Positions 5,923 through 58,468 of a stretch of 64,000 bases of DNA are shown one piece after another; the first letter of the stretch is position 1, and each line of letters opens with the position of its first letter. The stretch covers positions 8,522 through 72,521 of IMG/VR virus record IMGVR_UViG_3300035034_001216. The stretch is one strand, 5' to 3'. The notes below the pieces were generated by a model that had not been told where the DNA came from, ran no database searches, and saw only the letters and a program-made list of their open reading frames with translations. The translations under genes and the position numbers were made by a program. Source of the DNA: a virus.

Positions 5923-5944
5923 CTTTAAAGTTTATATTAAAATA

Positions 5945-5977
5945 TTTGGAAATATAAAAAATAATTTGTTAATTTAA
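5945..5977 (+). promoter_or_regulatory. possible Bacteroidota-type promoter upstream of the cargo genes
   Basis: The only sizeable intergenic gap in the + block. TTTG followed by TAATTTG/TTAATTTA resembles the -33 TTTG / -7 TAnnTTTG consensus, but the match is imperfect. Confidence 0.3.
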
Positions 5978-5990
5978 TAAAATACTAACT

Positions 5991-19871: not shown

Positions 19872-22800
19872 ATGATTTGTAAATATAGATATAAAGGTCA
19901 AATGTATTCTGAAGACGAGATTAGAAATCTTCTCGGTAATGAGTTCTTTGAAAAGGAACAATTTAATATTAAAGAATACGAAGGTGCAGGAGCAGGTATG
20001 ACTACTTACTCTCCTATTAGACTTGTTACTCTTAATGAGATTTTTGGTAGTGATACAGAAAGCCTTATACGTGCTCAGGACATTATTACTAAGCGTATGG
20101 GAGAAATAGTCTATATAGGTAACGTGGGTGAAAATAAGACCCGAGGTGTAAGAAATGAAGATGGCACATTAAAAGAAGAGCAGAGTTATATATTCAAATT
20201 AAATAAAAAAGTTCAAGAGGGAAGATCTTTATTAGGACCTATACCCAAAAGAAGTTTATATGTCCCCGAAACTTTAGAAAGAGCAAGTGAAACAATGTAC
20301 CAAAACATTGTAAGATATTTGAGACTTGTTGAAGATATGCAAAAGAAAAGGCCTTTGACTGAAAAGGAAGAAGCTAAATTTTTACCATTGTATACATCAC
20401 TTTCTAAGCTTGAAGACAAAAATAATTTTAAACACTTTTTGTCTACAATGTATCCAGAAGGTAGAAATACTATTAACAGTTCTAATTTAAATACTTTAGA
20501 TCCATTAAGTGATCAAGATATACAAACTATATATGTTGACATTCAAGACAATATAAAGAAAGATCAAGAAAAAAGTCAGTCTAAACATATAAAGTTTCTT
20601 ACAAATTTTATTGAGTACCAAACCCTTTCCCCTGAAGGTAAAGAAGTTATGAAGATTATTAGACAGCCTAAGTTTTCATATCTTGTTCTATTAGAAACTT
20701 TATCGGGTTCTTTTAATAGTAGGAATTTATTGTATGAACTAGATAGAACCTTTAAAAATTTAATGGGTATTTCTCCAGATACTGATATATCAAATCTTAC
20801 TGAAAAACAACAAAAGATAAAAGGTATATATATAAAGCTGACTGAGTTAATTACATATCAATTAGAAACAGGTCTTGAAATACAAGAAGATAATATCCTA
20901 AACTCAATAAAGTTTGAAGGAGAAGACAATTTAATATTTGATAATACTTTTAAATTAAATCTTCATAAAACTTTTAATAGTAAAATAAACAAAGACTCTA
21001 ATAAAATAATAACAAGAACTAGAATTAAAGGTGGTAAGAAAGGAGTAGAAACTACCTATGATTTTTTAGAAAGAATGGTTAAAGTTATAAATAGTCAAAT
21101 TTTAGCAAACCCTAATCTTTCAGAAAAAGATTTAGTAGGTATAAAAGATTTAGCTAAAGCATGGACTTATCACTATAATAAACTAACCCTTCAAGATTTA
21201 TTTTCATTACTATCTTCTCAAAGAAATTCTCATCCTGAAATTACAGGTATAAGCGGTAAATATGGAAGTATAGTATTCACGACAAGACCTATTACTAAGG
21301 GATCTCATGCTTATGATTTGCGTACTATATTTAGTGACAAGCTTATAAGAATGTTTAATACCAAGTCAGCAGTTGATGAATTTAAAAAGAAACCTTATTA
21401 CAAAGAAATATTAAAACTTTCTGATCCTAAAAAGAAAAGTTTAGATGATAAAACAAAAGCTATTAATTTATTTACACGTAATTTATTAGGAAAAAATAAT
21501 ATCAAGATTACAAATAATGATGATCTACGTATTATATCAAGGCAAATTAATTATTTTTTTACAGAGCTTGATAAAATAACTATTACTCAAGAAGACTTAG
21601 ATCACCTTTCTGCTAGAATATTAGCTGGGGATCAAACTGTGGAAGATGAGATTGAAAACACTCCTTTAGCAGATGCTATAATAGAAGGCTCAGCTAACAC
21701 AATTGTTAGTAAATTAGCTGAGTATTATGATGAAGTAGGTACTAGATCTCAAAAAGCTGTGGGGGTTTCTGCAGACGGAACTCCGTTTTATGTATATCAT
21801 TTATCATCTTATATAGAAAAATTACATGATTATGTTGCTGAAGCAGAAGGATTTAATCAAGTAAGACGAGTCAAAAATAAGATAAGTAATGCAGAGAGAT
21901 TTGATATGCATCCCGAGTTGGTTAAAAAATACACGTCAAGAAATCCTATTGGTAAAAGAACATCTATTGGTAATATAAAATTAGATAGAGGTACAAAAAA
22001 TTATGGATTTCCTGTTATGTACAATCGTGAAAAAACTAATGATTGGTTTAAGCGTGAATTTTCTACAGGGTTTATAACAGCGGTTAAAAATTCTTCTAAT
22101 GATGTTATTTATTATAATCACTATTACGCTCCTATTTCAAATAAACCTAATGCAAAAATGGTTGAGTTAGAGGTATTAAGTAGTGCTAATTTAAGAGCTA
22201 ATATCAAAGATATAATTAGTATTATAGAAGATAGACCTGAAGATTTAAATGGACTAATAAAAAATTATAATAGCGAGGATACATTACTATTTAGAGTTCT
22301 AAATGAAGTTGATCGTAGCAAGTCTAGAGATGATGTTGTTAGTCAAATATATGATAAGTTATTAGATATTGCAATTGAAGAAGCTCAAGAGTTTGTTGTA
22401 GATAATGAGCTATATATTTCAAAAGAAATTAGAGATGTAGAAGCAAAGCTTAGAGGTAATGGTAAAATTGGAGAAGAACATGATAATAGATTACTTAAAG
22501 CATTAAAAAGAGCAAAAATCATAAGTGAAAAAGATCAGACAATAAATAAAAGTCCTGATTTTTCTTATGGTAGTAAAACATTAAGTGATAATAATACTAG
22601 CATTAAAAACTATGATAATAAAGTTCAAGAGTTTATAGAAGTATATTCCTATTTTTTTGTAAATCATTATGTAAACTCATTCCTATTAGGTGACTTATTT
22701 GTAGGGGACGCAGCCTTCTTTAAAGATGAAAACGATTACATAAAAAGATTATCTATACCTTTCTCTCCCGGAGTTAGTATGTTTGTTCAATCTGAAATGG

Positions 22801-25800
22801 GAGCACTACCTTCCTTTAGAATGGCAGTACTTAGAGAATATGATACTAGTGGTCCTGAAATAATGAAAGAGTTATTTGATAGACTTTTATCAGAGGCTAC
22901 AACTGCTGACGAAAAAAATTATATAATTAAAATGTTTGATGATTTTGATAGAGCGGACGCACAGGGTTTTGCAATGCCATCAAGATTAGATGATATACGA
23001 GAAGGAGCAGGTCAATCTTTCTCACAGGGTACTGCAATTAAGGGGGTTATTTACACTAAAAGAATTCAATCCTTAGATAGTATTAATGAAAACGGTAAAA
23101 TACAAAGTGAAGAAAGACTAATTCCTACTGCTGTTAAATATTCTACATTTGTATTAACAGATGGGTTATTACAATTTAAGACAGTTATTGATGAAAAAAC
23201 AAAAAAACCTATACGTAAATATAAATATCCCGCTGCTGCAAAATTAGCTGAATGGATGACTGCTAATAAAATAGATGAGGTAGTTTTTCAATCAGGAGTT
23301 AAAGTTGGTTCAGCTACTCCGGAGCATTTATATAGTTTAGAAGATATAGTAGCTCTTGATCGTAAACTGGATAAAGATGAATACTCTTCATTAAGTTCTG
23401 GAAATTATAATAAATCTAGTGCTGAGTACTATAAAGAAAGAATAGCAGCTATTGAATCAAAAGGTGATGATAATTATACAGAACAAGATATAGAAGATCT
23501 TAAAGTGTTAAGAAAAAGTCAGAGAGTAAATAATGTTAAACTTTCTGTAATGGAAATTAACAACTCTGATTTTAGATTACAGCAAAATCCTACTAGTAAT
23601 AAAGAGTTTAACAAGGAAAGTGCTACTCCCTCACAGCTTGTTTATGTTATGAATATAGCAGCTTCTTCTTTAATGAAAGATGAAGTAACAGGTATATATG
23701 ATAAGTTTTCTCAAATCATGAAGGTTCAGGGTAAAGAGTTAATGGATCAATTAATAAATCCTGATAATGTTAGTGCTGAATATTTCAAAAAAGTAATAGC
23801 TGATAAAATGAAAGGTCCCGGTAATGAAGGATTTGCTGAAGCTTTATCTGCGGGAGTTAATATTAATTTTCCTTCAATGATGCAAAAATTAGGAATTCAA
23901 TTTTCTTCTTTCATATCAAATGAAGTATTGGCAACTAAGTTTCCCGGAGGAAAATTTCAACTAGTATCTGATGTTATATACAATCATCCTGTAACAGGAA
24001 AACCATTGACTATTGTTAAGAATGAAGATGGTACGGCTGTGTATGCGGAGGTATTAGTTCCTAAAAGATTTGCTGATAGATTACCTATAGATACAATGTT
24101 AGGAATAGACGGAGTTACTATACGTATACCTACATCAGGGCTTCACTCTACACTTCCATTTAAAGTAGTGGGTTATACTGATGAAGACTCTGATATCTTC
24201 GTAGGACCGCAACATATGACACCCGTTCAAGGTAGTGACTTTGATGCTGATGCTGTGTTTATAATTAGAGATATAACTTGGCAAGATTTTGAAAAAATAT
24301 TCTTTCAAGAATTTAAATTAAGCAATGAATTAAAAAGTGATATAAGAAAGTATATTGCTAAAAATCATAATAAAAAAACTGAAGACTTAAATGGTGATCC
24401 TAAAATTTCATCTACCGTTGTGGAAGAAAAAGACTTGGAAAACTTTTTATCTGAGTTTATTAATTCTGAAGAAATTGATTTAAAAAAGTTTCAGAAGTTA
24501 CAAAAAATGACTAACCTTAGACAAGGTATTATACGTCATATAAAGAAAATTCTTTCTGACCCTTCTGATCATAATGTAAAAGAAATGTTTTCCCCTATAT
24601 ATATGGGCCTTATTAATTCAAAAGAAGGTAACAGTGTGTACAACTGGTTAGCGAAAATGAGAGAAGTTAATTTTGATGATCTATTAAAAAATCTAGATAT
24701 ATCCAGACCTCAATATAAAAACGCTTATTATCACAGGAATTTTGATGGTAATGCATTAACAGGTATTTTTGCTAACTTGTTTAAAGCATTGTCTTATATG
24801 GAAAAGGCAGGTATTAATGGTGAAAGACCTATGCTTAAGGAAAAGTTTTCTAAACAAAAGGATGAAAATGGTAAGTCTATCAAAGTTAAAAACACAACAT
24901 CTGATATTATAATTGGAGATGTCACTTACAATCAAATGCAAGAGAACACTACATTTCTTGACAATAATGTTAGTGTAAGAATGATAATGGATATCTTTAT
25001 CAACTTGGCTATTGATAACGTAAAAGAGCAAGGTCTTCCTACTATTAATGCTTCCACTCAAACGGCAGCTCCTTATGTATTAGGGCTATCACTAGGTATA
25101 CCGTTAGAACAAATGGTAGGTCTTATGACTTCTCCTATGGCTATGAAAATAAGTTACTTTAAAAAGAGATCTGCTCCTTCTATGGTTAGAAATGTTATTC
25201 AGGAGCTTTATGATCAAGAAGACTTAATGGACAAAGCATCTGAAATTGAAATCACTAAAGAACTATTAGAGAAGCAAACTCTTTATGACGGTAAACAATT
25301 GAAGAATTTAACAAAAGAAGAGCTTATAGAGCAATACGCACTTCTTAATTTCTTTGAAAAATTAAATACTCCTTCTGAGGAGTTGAATGATATATCTATG
25401 AACTTGAGTGTTATACAAAATATGCAAGTTAACTTCAAAGATATTGAAAAACTAGTTAACTACTTTAAAACTAAGCTTAAACTGTCTAAAGAAACGCTTG
25501 ATAAACAAGGAGACCAAAATGAAATTAACTTTCTGGGTAGTTTAAATTCCGAAGAAGTAGAATATAATTCAAATAACTTTTCTATGCCTGAGTTATTTAA
25601 ATCTGCTCCTCATATTTATCAATCAATTATTCATCAAAGAGCAATGCATGAGTATATTTCAAAATCATTACACATATATACACAGCAAGATCATTTTAAA
25701 ACGTTTTTGAAAAAGTTACAAGTTAACATTAGTGAGGGATTTAATCAAGAAGATAGAGAAGATTTTTTAAGAAAAGAAGTTTTACACTTTTTTGCATCTT

Positions 25801-27119
25801 CTTTACCCAAAGTAAAAGAAATAAGAGAGCATCCTAGGAATGCGACACATCCATCCTATAGTTTTATTACAATGTCTAATATAGATACATGGCAATACGA
25901 ATTTGCAGAACAAGTAAAAGTATTAAAAGATAAGTTTCCAACTAATACATTTTTAGCAGGGTTGCAAATAGTTTACAATAAAGGCGCAGGAAGAGCATTC
26001 ATATCTTTAAGTAGTGGTAGAGCTTTAGATCCTATTTACATGTATGAAATGCAAAATGATTTTAAACAGCTTCCTAAAAGTGTACAAGAAGAATTTGTTA
26101 AGTATGTGATAATGTTTTACGGGGGTAAGTTTGGTTCAGCAAATTTTGTTATGACCATTCCCGGAGAAAGATATGTTGACTATTCTAATGATATAGCAGA
26201 TCTATTAAAAGAAGTAATTGATAAAAATGTATCTGAAAAATTTGATGTTGTAAAAGACCTTCTTGAAATACAAGTGATGATCAACTCTCATGCTAAACTG
26301 TTTACATTTAATAAAAAATCAGTTGTAAGAGTTGAAAATGCTTCTTTTGAATTAGATAATAAGGATAAAGACCCTATATATTTTGATATGTATCATTCAA
26401 AAAGTATTGAAGCTGAAGGATTTCAATCTGATGAAAACAATAAAGACGAAGACCAAGACGATACAGAAGACGATATTAATGAAACACAAGTAGAGTTAGA
26501 GGATGATAGACTTAAAAGCGCTAAGAAAAAATATATATCATTTGCTTTTAGAAAGAAAGGAAAAAACGCTTCTTATTTTTATTCAGTTTATAGAAGAATT
26601 GATTTACCAACTGAGTTAATGCCAAAAGATTGGAAAGATAAAGATATATATAAATATATAGGTACTTTAAGAAACAGTAAGAGTTATACATTTGATTCGG
26701 AAACACTTGATGGGCAAACTATTGATTCTCGATCATACAAAATAGAAGAAAGATTTAATCCTTTTTTACCAAGCAGAGGTATAGATAAAAAAAGTTTTGA
26801 TGAAGGAAAATATACTCAATCAGTAGTTACTAGTGATATGAAGGAAGGTATGAACATTATAATGTATCCTTCTCAAGATTTTTCTAGACAAAATGCTAAG
26901 CTGTTTAAAGTAGATTCTGTAATTACAACTACTGAAGATGATGTGATTGTTAAAAAAATTACGTATATTGAAGTAGATAGTCAAGTACCTTTTGTAAAAG
27001 AAGTAGATACTAATTACGGAACTTACTCAGGTGTTGAATCTAAATTAAGTAAAGAAGAGCAGGCTATGTATTTAAAGTACCTGACCGAACTAAAGAATAC
27101 TGAAAACATTTGTGATTAG
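19872..27119 (+). CDS. virion-packaged DNA-dependent RNA polymerase (crAss-like, phi14:2 gp66-type)
   Basis: 2415 aa with catalytic GSDFDAD (about 24237-24251), plus KRL...FSPG, DAQGF, RIPTSGLHS and AIDNVK motifs characteristic of crAss-like vRNAPs. Confidence 0.9.
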   Translation: MICKYRYKGQMYSEDEIRNLLGNEFFEKEQFNIKEYEGAGAGMTTYSPIRLVTLNEIFGSDTESLIRAQDIITKRMGEIVYIGNVGENKTRGVRNEDGTLKEEQSYIFKLNKKVQEGRSLLGPIPKRSLYVPETLERASETMYQNIVRYLRLVEDMQKKRPLTEKEEAKFLPLYTSLSKLEDKNNFKHFLSTMYPEGRNTINSSNLNTLDPLSDQDIQTIYVDIQDNIKKDQEKSQSKHIKFLTNFIEYQTLSPEGKEVMKIIRQPKFSYLVLLETLSGSFNSRNLLYELDRTFKNLMGISPDTDISNLTEKQQKIKGIYIKLTELITYQLETGLEIQEDNILNSIKFEGEDNLIFDNTFKLNLHKTFNSKINKDSNKIITRTRIKGGKKGVETTYDFLERMVKVINSQILANPNLSEKDLVGIKDLAKAWTYHYNKLTLQDLFSLLSSQRNSHPEITGISGKYGSIVFTTRPITKGSHAYDLRTIFSDKLIRMFNTKSAVDEFKKKPYYKEILKLSDPKKKSLDDKTKAINLFTRNLLGKNNIKITNNDDLRIISRQINYFFTELDKITITQEDLDHLSARILAGDQTVEDEIENTPLADAIIEGSANTIVSKLAEYYDEVGTRSQKAVGVSADGTPFYVYHLSSYIEKLHDYVAEAEGFNQVRRVKNKISNAERFDMHPELVKKYTSRNPIGKRTSIGNIKLDRGTKNYGFPVMYNREKTNDWFKREFSTGFITAVKNSSNDVIYYNHYYAPISNKPNAKMVELEVLSSANLRANIKDIISIIEDRPEDLNGLIKNYNSEDTLLFRVLNEVDRSKSRDDVVSQIYDKLLDIAIEEAQEFVVDNELYISKEIRDVEAKLRGNGKIGEEHDNRLLKALKRAKIISEKDQTINKSPDFSYGSKTLSDNNTSIKNYDNKVQEFIEVYSYFFVNHYVNSFLLGDLFVGDAAFFKDENDYIKRLSIPFSPGVSMFVQSEMGALPSFRMAVLREYDTSGPEIMKELFDRLLSEATTADEKNYIIKMFDDFDRADAQGFAMPSRLDDIREGAGQSFSQGTAIKGVIYTKRIQSLDSINENGKIQSEERLIPTAVKYSTFVLTDGLLQFKTVIDEKTKKPIRKYKYPAAAKLAEWMTANKIDEVVFQSGVKVGSATPEHLYSLEDIVALDRKLDKDEYSSLSSGNYNKSSAEYYKERIAAIESKGDDNYTEQDIEDLKVLRKSQRVNNVKLSVMEINNSDFRLQQNPTSNKEFNKESATPSQLVYVMNIAASSLMKDEVTGIYDKFSQIMKVQGKELMDQLINPDNVSAEYFKKVIADKMKGPGNEGFAEALSAGVNINFPSMMQKLGIQFSSFISNEVLATKFPGGKFQLVSDVIYNHPVTGKPLTIVKNEDGTAVYAEVLVPKRFADRLPIDTMLGIDGVTIRIPTSGLHSTLPFKVVGYTDEDSDIFVGPQHMTPVQGSDFDADAVFIIRDITWQDFEKIFFQEFKLSNELKSDIRKYIAKNHNKKTEDLNGDPKISSTVVEEKDLENFLSEFINSEEIDLKKFQKLQKMTNLRQGIIRHIKKILSDPSDHNVKEMFSPIYMGLINSKEGNSVYNWLAKMREVNFDDLLKNLDISRPQYKNAYYHRNFDGNALTGIFANLFKALSYMEKAGINGERPMLKEKFSKQKDENGKSIKVKNTTSDIIIGDVTYNQMQENTTFLDNNVSVRMIMDIFINLAIDNVKEQGLPTINASTQTAAPYVLGLSLGIPLEQMVGLMTSPMAMKISYFKKRSAPSMVRNVIQELYDQEDLMDKASEIEITKELLEKQTLYDGKQLKNLTKEELIEQYALLNFFEKLNTPSEELNDISMNLSVIQNMQVNFKDIEKLVNYFKTKLKLSKETLDKQGDQNEINFLGSLNSEEVEYNSNNFSMPELFKSAPHIYQSIIHQRAMHEYISKSLHIYTQQDHFKTFLKKLQVNISEGFNQEDREDFLRKEVLHFFASSLPKVKEIREHPRNATHPSYSFITMSNIDTWQYEFAEQVKVLKDKFPTNTFLAGLQIVYNKGAGRAFISLSSGRALDPIYMYEMQNDFKQLPKSVQEEFVKYVIMFYGGKFGSANFVMTIPGERYVDYSNDIADLLKEVIDKNVSEKFDVVKDLLEIQVMINSHAKLFTFNKKSVVRVENASFELDNKDKDPIYFDMYHSKSIEAEGFQSDENNKDEDQDDTEDDINETQVELEDDRLKSAKKKYISFAFRKKGKNASYFYSVYRRIDLPTELMPKDWKDKDIYKYIGTLRNSKSYTFDSETLDGQTIDSRSYKIEERFNPFLPSRGIDKKSFDEGKYTQSVVTSDMKEGMNIIMYPSQDFSRQNAKLFKVDSVITTTEDDVIVKKITYIEVDSQVPFVKEVDTNYGTYSGVESKLSKEEQAMYLKYLTELKNTENICD

Positions 27120-27125
27120 AAAATT

Positions 27126-30100
27126 ATGGCATGTAAAGTAATATATAGAGGACAGGAATATAATGAAGACGTATTTCTATCAAGAGTTGAAAATAACTTA
27201 ATACCAGAAATTGAGTTTATTAATGCTATGGCTAACAAAACAGTTGGTTACGTTTTTAACAAACACAGTGATGTTTTTTATAAAGACGTTTCTGATTTAG
27301 ATCTAAATAAAAAGTCTTTTGAATCCAAAGTTTTACCCAAATTATCAGAAGCTTCTGGAACAATATATGATATTATTAAACATAAAATCCCCGAAGATTT
27401 AAAGATACTGAGTGTTGATGAAATAGGGTACAATAAAAGCAGAAGAGTTCTTGGCAATTATAACTATAATGAAAGAGAAATAAAAATATTTGATCATGAC
27501 GGTTATGAAGACAGTAAAGAACAAACTCTTATCCATGAGCTATTTCACAGTGCATTTGACGCTTTTATAGAAGCAGATGCTAGTCAGCTAACTTCAGAAC
27601 AAAATAGTGCTATAACAGAGCTTAAAGGGCTTTTTGAAGAATACCACGTTAATATTCCTGAAGGTGCAATTAATTTCAAAGAGGAATCTGATAATGTAAA
27701 AACTCAATTAAAAGAATTTATCAACGAGGCAATTACAAATCCTAAATTTTTAGAACAGTTAAACAAGATAAATATTAATAAATCTAGCAATGAAAATAAC
27801 CTTAATAAATGGGTACAAGCGTTTATAGATATTATTAATAAGTTATTTGGATTAACTGAGGGAAGCATGGCTTCAAGTCTTATGAGTAATGTTATTTTTT
27901 TAATGAATACTCCTAAGCCTGAGGTCTCTTATAAAGTTGCTATTGCAAACAGAGAGGCTCCTGATATATCAAAAGTTGATGAAGACGTTTTCGAAAATCA
28001 AAAAAAGTGGCAATCCATTATTGAAAAACATATGGATGATTTTAAAGAATTAAGCCACTTTGTAGATGATAAAGGAGAAGAACAAAATTATTATATGTGG
28101 CTTGGTCGTCGTTATGACGGTCTTACTTCTGTTATTAAAAATGACATTAGAGGTTTTCAAGAAGAGTTTGATTGGATACAAAATTTAGCTGATTATGAAT
28201 GGGATCAAGCGGGGTATAGTCCTAGCGTGATGCTCAACATAGTTGGTATGAAAGATAAAGTTGATAAAGCTGAGTTTATAAAAAGAAAAAGATATGAGTT
28301 AGAAACTAATATGGCTAAAGGTAGATTAATTCACTACCAATTTCAGATACATATTGGTAATGGAAATAGACAGGCTATTGAAAAAAAGATGGAAGACATT
28401 CGAGATGAATACAGTCTTAGAATGGAAAGCACATCATGGGTAGAAGGATTATATGAATTTTATAAAAATAATATGTCCTATACTAATAGGACTAAAGATT
28501 ATTCAGAAGTACCATTAGCTAGTGATGAATTAGGAATAGCTACTACAATTGACCATATGATTCTTTATGATGATGGTCAAGTAGGTATAAATGATTGGAA
28601 ATCTGGTAAGTCATTTGAGAATAAGGTCACCACTAATATGATGAAGTATGGTGATGTGCCGGGGATTGATATTGAAAATACTCCTATAAATGCTGCTAAA
28701 CTCCAAGTAATGCTGGGAGCAGTTCTTTGGAAAATGAAACATCCAGAAGCACAATTTAAAAAACTAACAGTTCAATGGGTTAATAGATCAAATGAAACTA
28801 AGAGATATAGACCTACATCTGATGTAGATGTTGAAAGTTATTTGAAATTGGTAGAAGAATGGATGTTAGACAATCATCCTGAAGTTCATAAAAAATATCA
28901 AAACACTGGTCTTTTTACTAAATCATCTTATACTGGTTATCATAATTACACAACTACTGAGATGTTAAGAAGGGGTGTTGAGCCTAGTAAATATGAACAA
29001 TTATTAGAAACTGACATTCTTAAAATAGCTCAATCAAAAGGATTTAGTGCTAGAAAAATAGCAGATCAGCAAGGTAGAGTTGGTTTGTCTGAAAGAGAGG
29101 AGTTAGCAGCAACAGCTAGAACATTACTAGAACTATCTGCAGGTGATGACCAATTTGATTCAAGAGGTGATAATCAGATAGCCAGAGACTTACACCCTAT
29201 AAAAAGGTGGATAGCTTCTTATGAAGATATAGATAACCCTTATTTGAACGAATTTAAAAAAATACTTGATAGAAAATCTAACTTAGCTAGAAGAGAAATA
29301 AATAAAAAACGTTTAGAATTTGAATCCCTGATGCTTCCTATTTATAAAACATGGATAGCTGCTCAAGGTAAAACGTTTTCACAAGCAGCATTTAAAGGTA
29401 GATTAACATCAGTTAGTCCTTGGAATGAAAAAGGAACAGGTTTATTTCAGTTTGCATGGATTAATGAAGAAATAGAGAAAGGATATAACAAAGATGTTCT
29501 TGTACATCCTGAAAAACATCCTGAAACTTGGAAAACTCTAAGTAATGACCAGCAAAAACTTTTAAATTTCTTTCATGATACTTTACATAGTTATTGGGAT
29601 CCAAAAAATCCTGAGTCATTAATGAATAAAGTTGTTGGTACAGATGCTAGAAATAGACCTATAACTAATTATGATAAAGTAAAAGGTAAGTTTGCTAACT
29701 TTGGTAATAAAATATATGAATACGAAAAGGGAATGACTCCTCGTTATCATATGGGAAGTAAAGAAGTTATAGATAGATTTAAGTTTGGCGGTAAAACTAT
29801 GCAATATATCTTCAATAAATACTTTACATTTAGGCTGGAAAATAACTGGGAGGAGTGGCAAAATGAAGAAGAAATAATCCCTGTAAAAGGTATTGAAAAC
29901 GATCATAATACTCAAGATGATATGTATACACGTAATGTGGAAATCATGTTTGACCGTATGGTTCGTAATATGGAACTCAAAGACAAGCTGGATTATGTAT
30001 ATGCATTAGGACAAGGTATACGTACTTACTTACGTTTAAAAGATGATGGTCAAGGAGCTAATATGTATAAAAATACTATTGACTTTTTAGAAGATCAATT

Positions 30101-31610
30101 ACTAATGGATATACTCAATCAAGTTAAAACTAGTAATTTCTCCAATAAAATGTTTAAGACACTAACATTAAAGTTTCCAACTAAGTTCGTAGGTAACGAT
30201 GATAAAAAAGACCAAAGAAAAAATGAAACAGGATTTCAAGTAACAGCTATATCTTTTCATAAGATAATTCAATCTATGAAACATTTAGCATCGGCATCTA
30301 TTATGTGGTTACAACCTATTAATGGTACTCGTAACGGTATATTTGTTAGTATTGTAAACGCTAAAGATGCCATTAGAAACTCTATAGTTGAAAGAACTCT
30401 GGATGGTATTGATGAGAATTTTATAGATTTTACAGTTAAAGACATGGCATTTGCTCATAAAGAGGTTATGAAAATGTATCGTGATTCTATGGTAGGAGAT
30501 GTTAGAAAAAATAAAGTATATATACTCGCCAAAAGACTTGATTATTTACCAGATAACTTTGATTGGGCTACTTCAGAAAATGAGCTTATTAGTGGTAATA
30601 TGACATTAGTGCAGGAAAGTACTATGTATATGTTTCACACTATACCTGAGGAATTTAATGCACTTGCTATCATGGTAGCACAGTTAAACAAAATGAAGAA
30701 TAGATCTACTGGTAAAACTATATATGAGTCATATTCAGAACCTAAAGATATTGGAAATGGCGTATATGATGTAGAATGGACTGGTGGTGTAAGAGGTATT
30801 GTTAAAAGAGGTCAGATAGAAGAGGAATTAACTGAATTAGATGGTCTTGAAGTACGTAAAATGAAGAGAGTATACCAGCGTATGCATGGTAACTATAGAC
30901 GTGAAGAACGAGCAGCTATGGAAGCTTATATTATAGGTCAAGTATTTATACAGTTTAGAAAATACTTACCCTCTATTATTATAGGTTCGTTTGGAGGGTT
31001 ACGTAAAGATCAAACATTAGGGTATTATAAATTTACCGGAGATAAGAAGGATGGTAAAGAAGTAATGGAATGGACTGCTAGGCAAATTGAAGGTAGGTTT
31101 AGAGTCTTTGGTAGATTTTTAATGAATTTTTTAAGTTCAGAGAAAACATTATGGGATAACATGAAGACTGATCAAAAAGCACAAGTTATTGACTTTGGTG
31201 TTACAATGAGTTTTATGCTAATGATGTTGGCAGCTATGGCAGCAATCTTTGACGACGATGATGAAAAAGATTCATTCAAACTTTGGTTAGATGTAATTAG
31301 ACAAAACTCTACACAACACTGGAACTTCATGGATCAAATACGGTCATTACAACAACCTCCTGCTACGATTAAAAAACAATTTGATTTGGCATTAGGTCTT
31401 GGTGAATTAACAGCATCTTTATATTTATTGACAATAGGTGATTCTGAAGGAGCATTAACTAGAGATGGTAGAATTAAAGGTATGGCTCAAACACAAAAGT
31501 CTTTACCGTTTGCATCTTCTATATATACAGCAAGACGTTTTGTAAATAACACTGACTTTTTAGGAGATAAAAATGAAAACTTGGGAGTCTACTTGTGGAG
31601 AACTCGATAA
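27126..31610 (+). CDS. giant virion cargo protein: zincin-like and PD-(D/E)xK nuclease domains, hydrophobic C-terminal region
   Basis: 1494 aa. TLIHELFH...EFINE is zincin-like. IATTID...INDWKSG...KLQ is PD-(D/E)xK-like. Hydrophobic FMLMMLAAMAAIF lies near the C-terminus. Confidence 0.7.
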   Translation: MACKVIYRGQEYNEDVFLSRVENNLIPEIEFINAMANKTVGYVFNKHSDVFYKDVSDLDLNKKSFESKVLPKLSEASGTIYDIIKHKIPEDLKILSVDEIGYNKSRRVLGNYNYNEREIKIFDHDGYEDSKEQTLIHELFHSAFDAFIEADASQLTSEQNSAITELKGLFEEYHVNIPEGAINFKEESDNVKTQLKEFINEAITNPKFLEQLNKININKSSNENNLNKWVQAFIDIINKLFGLTEGSMASSLMSNVIFLMNTPKPEVSYKVAIANREAPDISKVDEDVFENQKKWQSIIEKHMDDFKELSHFVDDKGEEQNYYMWLGRRYDGLTSVIKNDIRGFQEEFDWIQNLADYEWDQAGYSPSVMLNIVGMKDKVDKAEFIKRKRYELETNMAKGRLIHYQFQIHIGNGNRQAIEKKMEDIRDEYSLRMESTSWVEGLYEFYKNNMSYTNRTKDYSEVPLASDELGIATTIDHMILYDDGQVGINDWKSGKSFENKVTTNMMKYGDVPGIDIENTPINAAKLQVMLGAVLWKMKHPEAQFKKLTVQWVNRSNETKRYRPTSDVDVESYLKLVEEWMLDNHPEVHKKYQNTGLFTKSSYTGYHNYTTTEMLRRGVEPSKYEQLLETDILKIAQSKGFSARKIADQQGRVGLSEREELAATARTLLELSAGDDQFDSRGDNQIARDLHPIKRWIASYEDIDNPYLNEFKKILDRKSNLARREINKKRLEFESLMLPIYKTWIAAQGKTFSQAAFKGRLTSVSPWNEKGTGLFQFAWINEEIEKGYNKDVLVHPEKHPETWKTLSNDQQKLLNFFHDTLHSYWDPKNPESLMNKVVGTDARNRPITNYDKVKGKFANFGNKIYEYEKGMTPRYHMGSKEVIDRFKFGGKTMQYIFNKYFTFRLENNWEEWQNEEEIIPVKGIENDHNTQDDMYTRNVEIMFDRMVRNMELKDKLDYVYALGQGIRTYLRLKDDGQGANMYKNTIDFLEDQLLMDILNQVKTSNFSNKMFKTLTLKFPTKFVGNDDKKDQRKNETGFQVTAISFHKIIQSMKHLASASIMWLQPINGTRNGIFVSIVNAKDAIRNSIVERTLDGIDENFIDFTVKDMAFAHKEVMKMYRDSMVGDVRKNKVYILAKRLDYLPDNFDWATSENELISGNMTLVQESTMYMFHTIPEEFNALAIMVAQLNKMKNRSTGKTIYESYSEPKDIGNGVYDVEWTGGVRGIVKRGQIEEELTELDGLEVRKMKRVYQRMHGNYRREERAAMEAYIIGQVFIQFRKYLPSIIIGSFGGLRKDQTLGYYKFTGDKKDGKEVMEWTARQIEGRFRVFGRFLMNFLSSEKTLWDNMKTDQKAQVIDFGVTMSFMLMMLAAMAAIFDDDDEKDSFKLWLDVIRQNSTQHWNFMDQIRSLQQPPATIKKQFDLALGLGELTASLYLLTIGDSEGALTRDGRIKGMAQTQKSLPFASSIYTARRFVNNTDFLGDKNENLGVYLWRTR

Positions 31611-52607: not shown

Positions 52608-53384
52608 TTAAGCGTTAATTTCTTGAACTTCTTGGATTGTTGTTTCTTCTTTAACTTGAGTTGTTTGAAAACTATCAAATACGATCTTTTCGTATTTTTC
52701 TCCCAAGTATTTTTTATAATTGTTTACTACTTCTTGAACAATATCATATACTCTACCCATTTTTACAATATCTTTTAACCAAAAGTTAGATAGAGATCTG
52801 TATTCAAATCCGTAGTCTTTAAATCTGAATCTTCCGGGTGTACCATAGATATCTTTTCTTGATTGGTTGTTATCTTCTCTAACTACCATATCTAAAAATA
52901 GATAATCCATTGCTTTAACCATATCTACCACCACATCCATATCTTCTGATAATTCGGGTGGTAGCCCTACATGGACATGCCCACCTGCGTATCTTACACC
53001 ATCTTTGAATTCAATCTTAGGATTTTCATTCTTAGTGTAAGCTGATAAATCAGGATCACATCCTATTTCCCAGTCATGATCTTCTTTTAAGTCTTCTTTC
53101 TCAAAAGTCATAGAAGGTACAACTGATAGAAAATCATCTCCAATAATATCTTGCAGCTTTGATTTTCCTACAAGAATATTATTTATGAATCCTTTTTTAC
53201 TAGTAGCAGGTGGTATATTCAATTCTAACATTACATTGTCAGCATGAACAGCATATCCATTTTTTAAATCTTCAACATCGTCTTTTGTTCCCGGTGTAAA
53301 ATCTGCTGCTTTTTTTCCTTTCTGTGTATCTCTTCCTAAAATAAAAAATTCAGGATCAGTTCCTATTGTAAAGGATCTATTCAT
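52608..53384 (-). CDS. phiEco32-like COOH-NH2 ligase type 2
   Basis: TIGTDPEFF, DNVMLELN, GCDPD, GGHVHVG and YGFEYRSLSNFW. Confidence 0.88.
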   Translation of the reverse strand: MNRSFTIGTDPEFFILGRDTQKGKKAADFTPGTKDDVEDLKNGYAVHADNVMLELNIPPATSKKGFINNILVGKSKLQDIIGDDFLSVVPSMTFEKEDLKEDHDWEIGCDPDLSAYTKNENPKIEFKDGVRYAGGHVHVGLPPELSEDMDVVVDMVKAMDYLFLDMVVREDNNQSRKDIYGTPGRFRFKDYGFEYRSLSNFWLKDIVKMGRVYDIVQEVVNNYKKYLGEKYEKIVFDSFQTTQVKEETTIQEVQEINA

Positions 53385-53403
53385 TATAAATTAAAAATTT
53401 AAA

Positions 53404-54167
53404 TTATTTAATAGGGTTAACTATTTTTTCAACTTCATTGATATAATAATTATAATTGACATCATAATCTAAAAAATCAACTTGTTGAAAAAATTTATTA
53501 AAATAAGTAACAAGATATTTACTTTCTACTTCAAAAGATCTGTCATCTACAAATACACCATCAAATAGCGTATTCTCATATACAGATTCTTTCCCTTCAA
53601 GAGGTGGCATTTTCTTTATTAGTTTTTTACCATGATTAGAAATATAATACCTTACTGTTTTACTAGCTTTCTCTACTGTTTTATCAGAACTTAAAACATC
53701 TTTTAAAATGTAATGAGATCCTTTATTAGATTTAACTGCTTTACAAAAGTCATATATGTCGTCACATTCATAAATAGTCTTTTTATAGTCTATATTATGA
53801 ACGTAATAATCATATATTGCCTTTGCTACAATTATCATAGAATGATTCTTATGAGGCTCACGGTTATAATCATACCAACCTTTAAGTTTCACTCTATCGT
53901 CTACTTTTTCATTTCCAGTTTTGATTGCTAGGTAATTATTTACATTACTCATAACAAGTAAGTCATAAAACGTTTCTTCTAAAACAAATTTCGTTTTATT
54001 TTCCCATTGTCTTTGTAATGATCTAAATTCATCTAACCTTTCTTTACTAAATAGTACAACTACACCATCAGTATTAGCAGATAAAACAGAAAATCCTGAT
54101 ATATCAAGATCTTCTATAAGCATTAACAATGATAATTGACCAATAGTGGTCGTTTGGATTGTTACTA
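53404..54167 (-). CDS. polB: family B DNA polymerase, exon 2 (extends 38 nt upstream of the annotated TTG start)
   Basis: Frame is open back to (L)VTIQTTTIGQLSLLMLIE and contains motif C SANTDG, NVNNY and KLKG. An in-frame TAA lies directly upstream. Confidence 0.88.
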
Positions 54168-54200
54168 CTTACCACACTCAGTCACCTGAGCATAATAAAA

Positions 54201-54833
54201 TTACGTTAATTTATCAGCAACTGTTTCTCTGTTGAATATCCATATTTTAATGAAATTTCTACTGTTATTATTATAAGCAGGTTCTGTACATGTTTCGCAC
54301 ATTTCAGTAAGACATCCATCTAATATTGCCCATTCATTTGTCACACCTATCGGTTCATTTTTTGTACTTTGTCCGCCAGAAGTCATGTTGGTAGATACTA
54401 GAGTAAAAGCTGGACATTTTGTTAGTATCCTATCAAGAATCATATTTTGAAAAACCCATTTTATAAGTTTTTCTTCTATAAATTCTTTGTTATACAAAAC
54501 ACCTTTAAGTTCAGAAATCATATTAGGTATTAATGTCGCAGATGAGTATTTTAAAGATGGATTATCTCGAGTCCCTTTCAAAAATGAAACTATTCTGCGA
54601 GATTCTCCATAAGCTGAGTTGATACCTGACATTTGGAGAGCACCACATGATATGTCAGTGCCTCCTACTCCTAAATGTTTATTGCCTGAGTAATTTATTA
54701 GTTCTTTAATACGAGATAAAACTTCAGGATTATCTTTTAATGTCTCAGGCGTTAGCTTTGAACTTTTTTTTTCTTCTACTTTTAGTACTTTCAATTTGCT
54801 CATAATAAATTGTTTTTTTTGTTTTGATTTCAT
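54201..54833 (-). CDS. intron-nested hypothetical protein (P9 region; 210 aa from MKSKQ)
   Basis: Track ORF 54201-54905. Its upstream part overlaps P8/S, so the A-rich-preceded ATG at 54833 (or 54803) is preferred. No homing-endonuclease motif. Confidence 0.7.
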   Translation of the reverse strand: MKSKQKKQFIMSKLKVLKVEEKKSSKLTPETLKDNPEVLSRIKELINYSGNKHLGVGGTDISCGALQMSGINSAYGESRRIVSFLKGTRDNPSLKYSSATLIPNMISELKGVLYNKEFIEEKLIKWVFQNMILDRILTKCPAFTLVSTNMTSGGQSTKNEPIGVTNEWAILDGCLTEMCETCTEPAYNNNSRNFIKIWIFNRETVADKLT

Positions 54834-54864
54834 AATTTTATTATTTGTAGTCTGGACCATCTCA

Positions 54865-55176
54865 TCAACCGCATTCAATGTCACATGTAGGACTATTAAG
54901 TCCACATTTACATTTAATTTTAGGTTGCTCGTTGTTGGCCTCTACGCCGTTTTCTAATTTTTCACATAAACTAATAACTTCTTCATCATCACCATAAGCG
55001 CATAATGCTTCTAAAATTAATTTAATGTCTTTATTATCAAGTGACGGCACGGGATTGTCAAATTTTTTAAGTACTATTTTACAAAAGTCTACTTCAAATT
55101 GCTTTTGGAGATCTTCTTGAACTGCTTTTATATAATCAGGATTTTCATCTGATTGAAATTGTACTATAATTTTCAT
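54865..55176 (-). CDS. intron-nested 103-aa ORF overlapping the ribozyme core (L5 to P8)
   Basis: ATG after an A-rich leader. DNPVP is encoded by Q, GVEAN by R, and the stop TGA lies at the end of P8. C-terminal CKC...CDIEC. Confidence 0.55.
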   Translation of the reverse strand: MKIIVQFQSDENPDYIKAVQEDLQKQFEVDFCKIVLKKFDNPVPSLDNKDIKLILEALCAYGDDEEVISLCEKLENGVEANNEQPKIKCKCGLNSPTCDIECG

Positions 55177-55202
55177 ATTTTTTTTAAATTTGAGTTTCCC
55201 CG

Positions 55203-55375
55203 TTAGCTAATATTAAATTCTGTTAAATATTTACATTCTGATTTTTTACCACCACATTTAATTATCTCATATCTTTTTGATAATTTACAATTACATGATG
55301 GTGGTCCACAATGTGAACCGGGTATATAACTTCCATTACCACACCCATCATCATAATGTTTACATTTTTTTTCAT
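55203..55375 (-). CDS. intron-nested small ORF; the Cys-rich frame needs one extra A in the A8 run after the ATG
   Basis: ATG-A8-TGT. In frame it gives a ~37-aa peptide (MKKNVNIMMM...). The shifted frame gives KCKHYDDGCGNGSYIPGSHCGPPSCNCKLSKRYEIIKCGGKKSECKYLTEFNIS*. Confidence 0.35.
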
Positions 55376-55458
55376 AATTTTAATATTAACCCCTCTTTCG
55401 AGGATTCCGAGTTATTCGAAGTACATTACTGTACTAAGCCGCTAGTTTGACTTTATTA

Positions 55459-56247
55459 TTAAATCGTTTTAAGAATATTGTATATAGTTAAATAATTTCC
55501 TTCAACTAATGCTTCCATGATAGCTTTTTGTTTGACTTGAGGAACTCTGCAAGAAATAAGCCTTTTAACCTTCATATACGCCTGAAGAGTTCCATCTTGC
55601 ATCCTGATTTTAAACTCATTTTTTGATTTAAATAGTATTGGAAAATTAATAGTTGAGTCCAATCCATTTAACTTATCAAAAATGACCCCTGCATTATAAG
55701 TATCAGAATAAAAGGAAGGTCTATTCTTTTGATATAAGCTCAAAACCAAAGCATCATGAAACTCATATTTGTTTTTCATGTGATTTGTTAATGATTTCCA
55801 TACAGTATAAGGATTTCCATAAGATTTGTTAAACATCATTGCCTGTCTTATAAAAATAAACATAAAATGCATTTCCCATTTCTGACCTATCTTTGATTTT
55901 ATACCATAACCAATAGATGCAAGTTCAGTACCAAATTCATAATTTATTTTAACTTTCTCAAGACCTAAATACTCAGCGATCTTATAAAGATAAATCCGGT
56001 CATAGTTTTTAATATTTCCGGGAATAGTTAAAATAATATTTTTATGTGAAAGGAAAGATCTAAAAACACTTTGACATCCAGATTGAGTTCCGTTCTGTAG
56101 GTTATTAGATCTTATAATGTCATGATATTTAACGTTATTAGCTTTTTCAGCATTTATAACAGATATAATTCTGTTTAAATCATTAAGTTTTATTGCTAAA
56201 TTACTCGTGTTTGAAATAGATGGTAATTGAGTTTTATATACTTTCAT
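55459..56247 (-). CDS. intron-nested hypothetical protein (L1 loop; about 262 aa from MKVYK)
   Basis: Track ORF 55459-56334. The ATG at 56247 overlaps the end of the previous gene. No HNH, GIY-YIG or LAGLIDADG motif seen. Confidence 0.7.
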   Translation of the reverse strand: MKVYKTQLPSISNTSNLAIKLNDLNRIISVINAEKANNVKYHDIIRSNNLQNGTQSGCQSVFRSFLSHKNIILTIPGNIKNYDRIYLYKIAEYLGLEKVKINYEFGTELASIGYGIKSKIGQKWEMHFMFIFIRQAMMFNKSYGNPYTVWKSLTNHMKNKYEFHDALVLSLYQKNRPSFYSDTYNAGVIFDKLNGLDSTINFPILFKSKNEFKIRMQDGTLQAYMKVKRLISCRVPQVKQKAIMEALVEGNYLTIYNILKTI

Positions 56248-56677
56248 TTTCTTGTATTGTTTGGTAATAGCTTGGGTTATTTGAAAATTCGTCGTTTTGA
56301 AATCTTTGTACTTCTGTTCCTCTACCTTGAGCATAATAAAACATTTTTCTATTTGTTTGACTACACCAAGTATATCGCCATCCTCCTTCTTTCCCTACTA
56401 GAGAAAATAATGAACATACAACTTCTGTAAGAGTGGCTTTAGGATAATAATATTTAACTATCATATAAATGTCTCCTAAAGATCTACGCTTTTTTGCTAC
56501 ACAAAGCACATCTTTTGTTTTTACATGTATTGTTCCATGTTTTGTTGTTAATTCTTGTAAAAATGCTATAATAAAATCATATACAGGCATTTTCTTTGCT
56601 TCTTTCTTATAGAATCCTTGTAATCTTATAGGATCATAATCATTTAATATTCTTTCTTCAATTTTATCTAAAGTCAT
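56234..56677 (-). CDS. intron-nested hypothetical protein (L1 loop, 147 aa)
   Basis: Starts 12 nt after the 5' splice site. Contains RRSLGDIYMIVKYYYP and WCSQTNRKMF; no homing-endonuclease motif. Confidence 0.7.
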   Translation of the reverse strand: MTLDKIEERILNDYDPIRLQGFYKKEAKKMPVYDFIIAFLQELTTKHGTIHVKTKDVLCVAKKRRSLGDIYMIVKYYYPKATLTEVVCSLFSLVGKEGGWRYTWCSQTNRKMFYYAQGRGTEVQRFQNDEFSNNPSYYQTIQENESI

Positions 56678-56689
56678 TTGTTTTAGTTA

Positions 56690-57818
56690 ACGGATCATAC
56701 ATCCATGAATACTTATCATTAGTTTTTCCAAAGCCACCACCGTTAAGTGATAGCTTATAACCATCTGCTTTAATTTTATCGCCTTGTTTTTTAGCTTCTA
56801 CTCTGTCATTTGCCAGAGTTTCGTAGCCTCTTAGCCATTCATGACCGAGGTGTTGTGGGTATAGATTATTATTTATAATTCCGAACGGATACATAGAAGC
56901 AACATCAATCTCTACAAGATATTCATCTTTTTTAGCTTTTAAATACCTTGGCTTATCATGTGAATGAATACCACCATTTTTTAGATTAAAGAAATTATCT
57001 CCAATCTGTATCTTGTATGTAATTTGATTCTTTGTACCCTCTAACACTCTAGATCTAAAGTCTTTCAATACATTATTAAGATTGTCAGTTCTGAACTTTA
57101 CAAAGGCAGGTATACAATCTTCCATTCGTATTGTTTTCCTATAAGTTCTTAAATCTTTGAACTTATAGTAACTTTTACCAGAGTGCTTAGAATAGAATAG
57201 AGCGTTAATTTTAGCACCAATTGCTACATCAGACATATTCATAGCATTAAAGTTAAACTCTGCTCCTATATCCTTCCTAAGCTGTATTGCTTTAGTAGAA
57301 ATAGGATTCTCATAAAACTCTTTAGTTGCTACAACATCATTTCTGTTATAGTAAATGATTTCATCAAATTGATCAGATGATACATAAGAATGTGGATCTA
57401 AAGGAAGATCCATTATATTTTTCATTCTTAAATAAAACTCAATCCATTTTAATGATGTCATTCTTGCTTTGTTATTATAATGGTGTATTTTAAATAAATC
57501 AAGATGTGGAATTATTAATCTTTCCCATTCATTTTCATTATTTATAATACTTAGTGACTTTTTATACATATTTGATAATAAATCTTTACTGGATATATTA
57601 TCAAGGAATGCATTAATCATCGGACCATCATAGTTTAAGCAATTAAAACCTACTAATGCTTTAACTCTATTCATAAGAAACGACAGATACTCAGATCTAT
57701 CATCTCTATCCTTATGAATAATAAAATATACTTCTTCATTAGTTGTACTATTTATAAAGAAAGCTGAATGAAAGTTTGGAAATTGTTCCAAATCGTATAT
57801 CCATACTCCTTTGTCCAT
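56690..57818 (-). CDS. polB: family B DNA polymerase, exon 1 (unspliced frame runs on to a stop at 56664)
   Basis: 3'-5' exonuclease motifs YDLE, GFN..YD and YNRND; motif A DVASMYP; motif B KLSLNGGGFGK. Ends at YDP and lacks motif C. Confidence 0.9.
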
Positions 57819-57828
57819 AGTTTATTAT

Positions 57829-58323
57829 TTACATTATTAAAAGTTTTTCTTCTTTTTCTAGTTCTTTTTGTAACTCTTTACATTCTTTATAACTTTCATA
57901 AAAAAATTTAATCTGAGATCTAATATCAGACATATTTTTTATATCTTGTTCTACATTTGCTAGACATTCTGTTATATCATCGCCAAATATAAGTTCAAAC
58001 CCAAAAGGATCTTGATCTCTAAATTTACGTGCTATTCCTATACACATTAATTTTGAAAAAGCTCTCCAAGGCAATACAGATCTTGAGTATACTTCTGGAT
58101 ATTTTGATCCTTCTTTTGAAATAACAACCATATATTCAAGATTTTTTTTACTAAGATTTGTTATAAAAATCTTACATGATGATACTTTAGCTATTTTAAA
58201 ATTAGAGAAATAAAATTCATACAAAAGTTTAGGTAATATATTAAATACCTCAACCGTTCCTAAAGCTAAAGGCTCTTCCTTTTTTGAGGCGTTCAATAAA
58301 TCTTTGAAGTTTATTACTGACAT
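57829..58323 (-). CDS. hypothetical protein
   Basis: 164-aa ORF. Confidence 0.55.
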   Translation of the reverse strand: MSVINFKDLLNASKKEEPLALGTVEVFNILPKLLYEFYFSNFKIAKVSSCKIFITNLSKKNLEYMVVISKEGSKYPEVYSRSVLPWRAFSKLMCIGIARKFRDQDPFGFELIFGDDITECLANVEQDIKNMSDIRSQIKFFYESYKECKELQKELEKEEKLLIM

Positions 58324-58468
58324 GTTCGTTATCTTCTATGTATAAAATAGTATTTCTTTCAATTTCAATTCCTCGCAGTTTAACATTTTTTCTTCTTTCT
58401 TTTAAAGAGGAAAGCAGCTTGATAGCTGCCTCCCTATTTTCGAATTCTTCTGTATAACCCCCTATCAT
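58250..58468 (-). CDS. hypothetical protein
   Basis: 72-aa ORF with an ATGA overlap with the upstream gene. Confidence 0.45.
   Translation of the reverse strand: MIGGYTEEFENREAAIKLLSSLKERRKNVKLRGIEIERNTILYIEDNEHVSNKLQRFIERLKKGRAFSFRNG

Follow-up and report, generated by a model that had tools for sequence, protein, structure and literature searches.

Why is the DNA polymerase gene of this phage found in two pieces, and what is the sequence that lies between them? The locus belongs to a 64,000-nucleotide stretch of virus DNA (IMG/VR record IMGVR_UViG_3300035034_001216, positions 8,522 to 72,521; hereafter the window), in which two open reading frames (ORFs) for the halves of a PolB polymerase are separated by 2,522 nt. 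Phage group I introns, as textbooks present them, have one ribozyme and at most one homing endonuclease, and the classical examples are those of T4 td, nrdB and sunY, together with the SPO1-type polymerase introns. A first reading of the window from its letters (the original prediction) had proposed that polB is interrupted by a group I intron whose ribozyme is dispersed around several unrelated genes. Following up this proposal, we consider it very probable that a single cis-spliced group I intron makes up the 2,522 nt that separate the polB halves; we infer, rather than observe, the splicing, its cis mode and the roles of the carried genes.

Two halves of one polymerase gene

Coordinates of the polB halves, the intron and the RNA elements are given in window numbering, on the minus strand (-):

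57818..56690 (-), polB exon 1, 1129 nt: exonuclease domain, N-terminal palm and motif B
56689..54168 (-), predicted group I intron, 2,522 nt: in-frame join, and a core homologous to that of a co-varying family
54167..53404 (-), polB exon 2, 764 nt: remaining palm with motif C, and thumb

The ORF of the N half extends over 57818..56664 (-) and encodes 384 aa, that of the C half covers 54129..53404 (-) with 241 aa, and the distance between the halves given by the original prediction was confirmed on these coordinates. A single profile, PHROG 1252, spans both, with the N half matching positions 52-425 (E 1.5e-82) and the C half positions 438-651 (E 5.3e-51). Joining 56690 to 54167, as had been proposed, does restore the frame: the 1129 and 764 nt of the two exons sum to 1893 nt, which is 630 codons and a stop with 0 internal stops. 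Exon 1 ends with the codons for Y-D-P and the first base of a Leu codon, and exon 2 supplies the other two bases, followed by V-T-I-Q-T-T-T-I-G-Q. When the joined protein was aligned with 8 uninterrupted PolBs (P0007 among them), the joint was free of gaps and the residues flanking it were conserved. The bases expected at the ends are also in place, as the 5' exon ends in U (56690) and the intron in G (54168). Left unspliced, the exon-1 frame continues for 8 intron codons and ends with a stop at 56664. For the C half, the frame is open from two codons upstream of the 3' splice site (one before the junction codon), and there is no start codon in exon 2 ahead of its conserved first 13 codons.

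Relatives of the polymerase break at the same point. The proteins P0002-P0006 (64-79% identity, 378-385 aa) all diverge directly after the same Leu, and the next PolB relative, at 52% identity, is intact with 626 aa. Searches of viral_contigs gave no relative of the N half and one locus at 31% for the C half, and no PolB relative was found in genome_contigs. The junctions themselves are covered by Logan contigs of run X1 (possibly the source sample), which span both of them. A further contig (X3, record 17, 54135-54285) comes from another study and reads across the 3' junction without differences. For the 5' junction of the exact window sequence no bridging independent contig is listed; the same 5' junction is found, in a relative, in L002, L003 and L004. 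Among the contigs examined over the junctions, none carried an intron-less joint. An assembly chimera, which had been named as a possible refutation of the proposal, was rejected because X1 contigs cover both junctions and X3 the 3' junction, the relatives break at the same residue, and the metagenome contig L002 has the same layout around the insert. A split intein is not supported either, as no Hint or intein domain was found and the N half extends by only 8 codons.

Ribozyme elements and co-variation across related loci

The elements assigned to the intron RNA are listed in order from the 5' splice site:

56688..56693 (-), P1 5' strand: last 4 exon bases, ending in U56690, and first 2 intron bases
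55446..55439 (-), internal guide sequence ACUAGCGG: 1,243 nt from the 5' splice site; same in L002
55420..55435 (-), P2 hairpin: 6 bp, GUAA loop
55408..55411 (-), P3 5' strand: 4 nt, then GAAU; pairs with 54931-54928
55206..55403 (-), extra P3-P4 domain: hairpin A (55403-55392, GAAA loop) and hairpin B (12-bp stem)
55186..55203 (-), P4 5' strand, J4/5 and P5 5' strand: P4 and J4/5 conserved family-wide, P5 co-varying
55203-55198 with 55054-55049 (-), P4
55193-55186 with 55065-55058 (-), P5
55044..55065 (-), P5', J5/4, P4' and P6 5' strand (Q element): 17-nt exact motif in 34 viral contigs
55048-55044 with 54950-54946 (-), P6
54854..54950 (-), P6', J6/7, P7 with bulged A, J7/3, P3', P8-L8-P8', J8/7 and P7' (R and S elements): co-variation
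54942-54936 with 54859-54854 (-), P7
54927-54923 with 54870-54866 (-), P8
54192..54844 (-), P9: 14-bp long-range stem (54844-54831 with 54205-54192) enclosing ORF210
54168..54190 (-), 3' terminal module: GUGA-capped hairpin (54190-54177) and a tail ending in G54168; same in L002

The 3' half of the guide pairs with the end of exon 1 to give a P1 of 6 bp (56693..56688 with 55444-55439), made of 4 exon and 2 intron base pairs, among them the U-G pair of the 5' splice site. The four bases that open exon 2 pair with the 5' half of the guide, giving the four pairs of the P10 that had been proposed. The helices follow one another in the order P3-P4-P5-P5'-P4'-P6-P6'-P7-P3'-P8-P8'-P7'. The guide and the helices from P3 to P9 had been read by eye, and their coordinates all proved correct and are supported by relatives, with P4, P5, P6, P7 and P8 present as first described. 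The Q, R and S elements each occur once in the 64 kb of the window, which has all core elements of the family consensus in intact form. A twin-ribozyme or twintron arrangement was not found, as a second core is absent from the 64-kb window and Rfam gave nothing else in the insert.

The closest comparison is provided by L002, whose PolB is 78% identical and in which the N half is followed by ORFs of 147, 265, 142 and 219 aa and then by the C half. The exon DNA of the two loci is 78-79% identical, and the four cargo proteins are 53, 31, 40 and 26% identical. Window and L002 agree exactly over 18-32 nt in the guide, P4, Q, R, S and the 3' hairpin, and these core pieces are the only long stretches of 100% identity within the insert. 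P2, P5 and the long-range P9 stem carry compensating changes between the two; in L002, for instance, P2 is a 9-bp stem of other sequence with the same loop. Counting the window and L002, 23 sequences have a P2 capped by a GNAA loop.

A blastn search of the phage collection with the whole insert found nothing that matched. Relatives were retrieved with the 17-nt Q motif, which occurs in 34 viral contigs; with the window and L002, the examined set comprised 36 sequences. The family of introns to which the insert belongs is widespread in phages from the environment. The R element is present in 31 of these (29 of the 34 contigs, the window and L002). Five contigs (L039, L043, L045, L050 and L055) have the Q 17-mer without an R element and were not counted as family, and a 20-nt pattern of the S element gave 0 matches in viral_contigs. 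For P3, the 5' module was located by the P2 hairpin and GAAU alone, with P3' not used, and the four bases before GAAU paired with the P7-P8 box in all 32 cells over 8 types (0 of 2000 shuffles), which supports the 4-bp P3 found by eye in the window. In an alignment of 14 sequences, P7 and P8 pair in 99.4% of 168 cells, 11 of which are changed on both sides; 0 of 500 shuffles reached the observed value, and slid controls gave 14-45%. Pairing of P5 was seen in 82 of 98 cells, and the first two G-C pairs of P7 and its bulged A are invariant (14 of 14 sequences). The guide and the exon end also co-vary, across four types in the family. At the 3' splice sites mapped for L034, L036 and L057, the 3' module is found again, as a GNRA hairpin with a short tail whose last base is G.

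The distance between the guide and the splice site can be followed in these relatives. The contigs L033 and L046, which carry one and the same sequence within a primase-like gene, have the window's exon end, its first eight intron bases and its guide, and their P1 is a 6-bp hairpin with a 7-nt loop, where the same loop measures 1.24 kb in the window and L002. The P1 that the original prediction had formed with a distant guide is thus seen here as a compact hairpin, and the 1.24-kb L1 of the window is therefore taken to be an insertion. At another PolB site, L034 has a compact P1, and L036 and L057, with the same splice site and first intron bases, have 1.6-2.2 kb with three or four ORFs between the splice site and the guide. 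As a separate observation, the same P1 and guide in the primase-like gene of L033/L046 fit a spread to sites that share the six-base exon end. The viral contig L035 (4,473 nt) carries two family 5' modules on one strand, 2.2 kb apart, which hints at two consecutive introns or at one nested within another.

A blastn lead showed the same core in a cultured crAss-like phage, Cellulophaga phage phi14:2, with P7 and P8 changed on both strands. An unannotated family member lies at about 3290-6020 of its genome (L023, NC_021806; also L042), with the P1-P2-P3 module just before g025 and core elements at about 4263, 5001, 5117 and 5210. The genes g025-g028, separate hypothetical proteins in RefSeq, would lie in the intron loops and are followed by a "DnaB" fragment, g029.

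A link to known group I introns comes from L030, a compact member of the family with short L5, L6 and L8, which matches RF00028 with 44.5 bits and E 2.4e-10, below the gathering score of 50 for that model. The alignment covers P4, J4/5, Q, R, P8, S and the GNRA-capped P9 as they were assigned in the window, and the stretches of L030 with J4/5, J5/4, the R element and J8/7 align to the RF00028 consensus. Because of this alignment and the co-variation described above, we conclude from the sequences that the window insert is a group I intron, as are its relatives. At the gathering score, Rfam gave no group I match in 8 related loci but only one tmRNA and one tRNA. Contigs with family introns also carry a phage-borne tmRNA (L053, 708-1042, RF00023, 68.8 bits) and a tRNA (L030, 3901-3974).

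By homology with known group I introns, splicing would proceed as follows. P1, with its splice-site U-G pair, would be made by the guide (55446-55439) and the last bases of exon 1, which lie 1.24 kb further upstream, and the P3-P8 core would provide the guanosine-binding pocket. An exogenous G would attack after U56690, the 3' OH of exon 1 would then attack after G54168, and the ligated mRNA would encode the 630-aa PolB. The ribozyme would thus be intact but stretched, its core pieces being brought together by the stems that close the loops.

Genes in the loops and a frame through the core

Four sites in the intron are occupied by four or five ORFs (two in L1, one in P3-P4, one in L5-P8 and one in P9), and the multi-gene cargo was thereby found at the positions where the original prediction had placed it:

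56234..56677 (-), ORF147, L1 gene 1: 147 aa, predicted winged helix; 53% identical to the L002 copy
55459..56247 (-), ORF262, L1 gene 2: 262 aa from ATG 56247; 31% identical to the L002 copy
54865..55176 (-), ORF103: 103 aa, with its ATG in L5 and its stop in P8'
54833..54201 (-), ORF210, P9 gene: 210 aa, possible GNAT-like fold

Against Pfam, PHROG and NCBIfam, the cargo ORFs of the window gave only noise and no homing-endonuclease family, and no cargo ORF matched the transposase, TnpA or TnpB families that an IStron would carry. In the related introns and their surroundings, 4 of 105 ORFs are LAGLIDADG_2, and most by far are without a Pfam domain. A 232-aa ORF in the P9 region of a related polB intron (L057, 2984-3679, minus strand) has a LAGLIDADG-like motif at its start.

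ORF103 is of particular interest, as its path leads through P5', P4', P6, L6, P6', P7, P3', P8 and L8, that is, through the catalytic core. In 29 of 31 sequences, or 26 of 28 once three duplicates are removed, the frame with the L5 ATG stays open over the R element; of the other two frames, one is open for about 7 codons in most sequences and the other mostly for 11-38. The length of L6 is 2 mod 3 in all 29 loci, in which it takes 13 distinct values from 11 to 182 nt, and many L8 loops of the family encode Cys-rich tails. These patterns point to a coding constraint laid over the RNA constraint in the core ORF. ORFs of group I introns have been described as lying mostly in loops and at times reaching core sequences under tight control, according to the account in PMC3984707.

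The two L1 genes are closely packed behind exon 1. The read-on frame of exon 1 ends 14 nt after the start of ORF147 (stop and start overlap over 56664-56677), the start of ORF262 overlaps the stop of ORF147 (56234-56247), and L002 is arranged alike. Because of these overlapping stops and starts, the L1 genes are likely to be translationally coupled to exon 1. Ribosomes on the unspliced RNA would halt 8 codons into the intron, and the L1 genes would follow by coupling. Splicing would require both a P1 formed across the L1 genes and a core free of ribosomes, and expression of the cargo and of the polymerase probably compete.

Modelling supports the assignment of ORF147 as a winged-helix protein. 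Its AF2 model has a pLDDT of 96.9, and the best structural match is the Fur DNA-binding domain (Z 7.6), followed by many winged-helix proteins; a profile search against PDB sequences gave noise and Foldseek nothing at E 0.001 or better. With the same E cut-off, 431 homologues of ORF147 were found, many of them of 250-300 aa, in which it corresponds to the C-terminal half. The N-terminal domains of these longer homologues are absent from the window and have no Pfam family. For ORF262 we found no family match, no homologue by word search and only Atlas scores below 0.9, and its poor Atlas model gives no more than a weak R3H-like lead. The model of ORF210 has a pLDDT of 66 and GNAT-fold matches at Z 5.4-7.7, with nothing in Foldseek at E 0.001 or better, and we treat the GNAT-like fold as a lead, not an assignment.

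Hairpin B of the P3-P4 domain (stem 55390-55379 with 55217-55206) contains a Cys-rich frame of about 55 codons, whose only ATG (55375) is one base out of frame at a run of eight A (55372-55365). The broken frame may mark a pseudogene or a slippage site, or it may stem from a homopolymer error; a contig, X2, spans part of the run. The whole domain is absent from L002 and is present, with or without ORFs, in L025, L036, L051, L037 and other members, where it is either empty or holds ORFs of up to about 1.2 kb. Cargo families also move between sites, as the ORF210 family is found in 12 distinct loci, among them in P9 (L038, L041, L042), in P3-P4 (L034) and in L1 (L036). With this family spread over 12 loci, and with the frame across the core kept open in 29 of 31 sequences, the carried genes are not random passengers.

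Alternative explanations and known group I introns

Several observations weigh against a cis-spliced intron. With E allowed up to 10, Rfam found no group I intron in the window or L002, nor in the virus record as a whole (72.5 kb), and even the compact L030 scores under the gathering threshold; the miss in the window and L002 was likely caused by the long loop inserts. No RNA runs that hold the window sequence are listed, and the ligated junction was not seen. P1 is just 6 bp across 1.24 kb, P3 is just 4 bp, and the closing pair of P8 is unpaired in the window. The domain inserted between P3 and P4 and an ORF through P4'-P8 would moreover be expected to disturb folding.

Three other explanations can be considered in this light. 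The gene might be truly split, with the ribozyme a dead relic and PolB made of associating polypeptides of 384 and about 241 aa. Gene callers do report two separate proteins, the N half terminates at a stop of its own after 8 codons of the insert, and the C half has an in-frame TTG (54129) and ATG (54123). Starting there, however, would lose 13 conserved codons that align to intact PolBs, and the core pieces are 100% identical where the adjoining cargo is 26-53% identical, which indicates purifying selection on the core; with the core elements intact in the window as well, we regard a dead ribozyme as very unlikely. A discontinuous intron spliced in trans, in which one transcript would carry exon 1 and the L1 genes, another the ribozyme and exon 2, and P1 would pair the two, seems unlikely to us as well. 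It has in its favor that P1 must span 1.24 kb in any case and that ribosomes would sit on L1 genes coupled to exon 1, but promoter-like sites are not enriched (41 compared with 34.1 +/- 5.8 in shuffles) in a weak scan that does not cover the promoter types of all hosts, and of six terminator-like sites across 53300-58400 in the same weak scan none is in L1.

Nested elements are the remaining alternative, with an ordinary intron of about 1.3 kb and an independent L1 cassette whose excision might need two steps. The relatives with a compact P1 do mark the L1 content as an insertion, and the ORF210-like genes shift from P9 in the window to P3-P4 in L034 and L1 in L036. On the other hand, there is no second ribozyme core in the window, and L1 has no transposase, endonuclease or group II domain. 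We therefore give separate excision hardly any credence, and a nested origin would in any case be compatible with a single cis-spliced intron, which is the explanation we prefer.

A more far-reaching possibility, which we put forward tentatively and with some doubt, is that the intron belongs to an undescribed family of phage group I gene carriers, with insertion sites in L1, between P3 and P4, in L5/L6/L8 and in P9 (four or more in all), mobile non-endonuclease cargo, a frame through the core with a Cys-rich tail, and a switch between translation and folding that would set the cargo against the polymerase. In such a carrier, the frame open through the core would make translation and ribozyme folding mutually exclusive. 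The layout is not unique to the window phage, as other loci of the family hold ORFs at the same sites. A literature search of limited range found no description of the family, the P3-P4 domain, multi-site non-endonuclease cargo in phages or a core-open frame.

Compared with classical phage group I introns, which the account in PMC3984707 describes as having no ORF or one homing-endonuclease ORF in a loop, the window intron shares the conserved replication gene, the P1-P10 architecture, the early in-frame stop and the loop ORFs. It differs from those described there in its four occupied sites with four or five ORFs and no recognisable endonuclease, its 1.24-kb L1 and its extra P3-P4 domain, and its ORF crosses P4'-P8, whereas the classical overlap is at one end of the core. 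In crAss-like phages, the genes for PolB, primase and helicase are reported to be split by group I introns, found via their endonuclease domains (Yutin et al. 2021, PMC7886860), and the report on Jug phages describes abundant small, ORF-less group I introns averaging about 206 nt, for which subtype covariance models were used (PMC12880540). The family described here resembles these introns of crAss-like and Bacteroidota phages in the types of genes it occupies, and phi14:2 holds a member, but unlike them, as far as they are described in these reports, it falls below the Rfam gathering score and most of its ORFs are without a Pfam domain.

Beyond phages, group I introns of fungal mitochondria have been described with up to five LAGLIDADG genes per intron (Selles Vidal et al. 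2025, PMC11835236). These likewise have more than one ORF per intron, but in that description all are LAGLIDADG, and in the window none is; the host of the window intron is also a phage, and one of its ORFs overlaps the core. IStrons, as characterised in bioRxiv 10.1101/2023.11.20.567912, combine a group I ribozyme with an IS605/IS607 element. Like them, the window intron has non-endonuclease cargo and a conflict between RNA folding for splicing and other uses of the RNA; unlike them, it has no TnpA or TnpB, and its cargo is distributed across several loops and not in one 3' block.

Annotation pipelines rely on endonuclease domains or on covariance models, and the window intron was missed by Rfam. 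The essential polymerase is left annotated as two fragments, and genes that bear no sign of an endonuclease make up most of the intron. Should the family splice as predicted, loops closed by stems would let a ribozyme extend over kilobases, introns could act as phenotypically silent places for accessory genes within essential genes, and a protein could be encoded through a catalytic RNA core, a dual constraint on RNA and protein that would be both rare and testable. A practical rule for mending split replication genes in metagenomic phage genomes also follows from the arrangement.

Elsewhere in the window, giant ORFs of 2,784, 2,415 and 1,494 aa lie on the plus strand (9587-17941, 19872-27119 and 27126-31610), without a PHROG match at E 1e-5. 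A comparison of four giant ORFs with the PHROGs gave one structural match.

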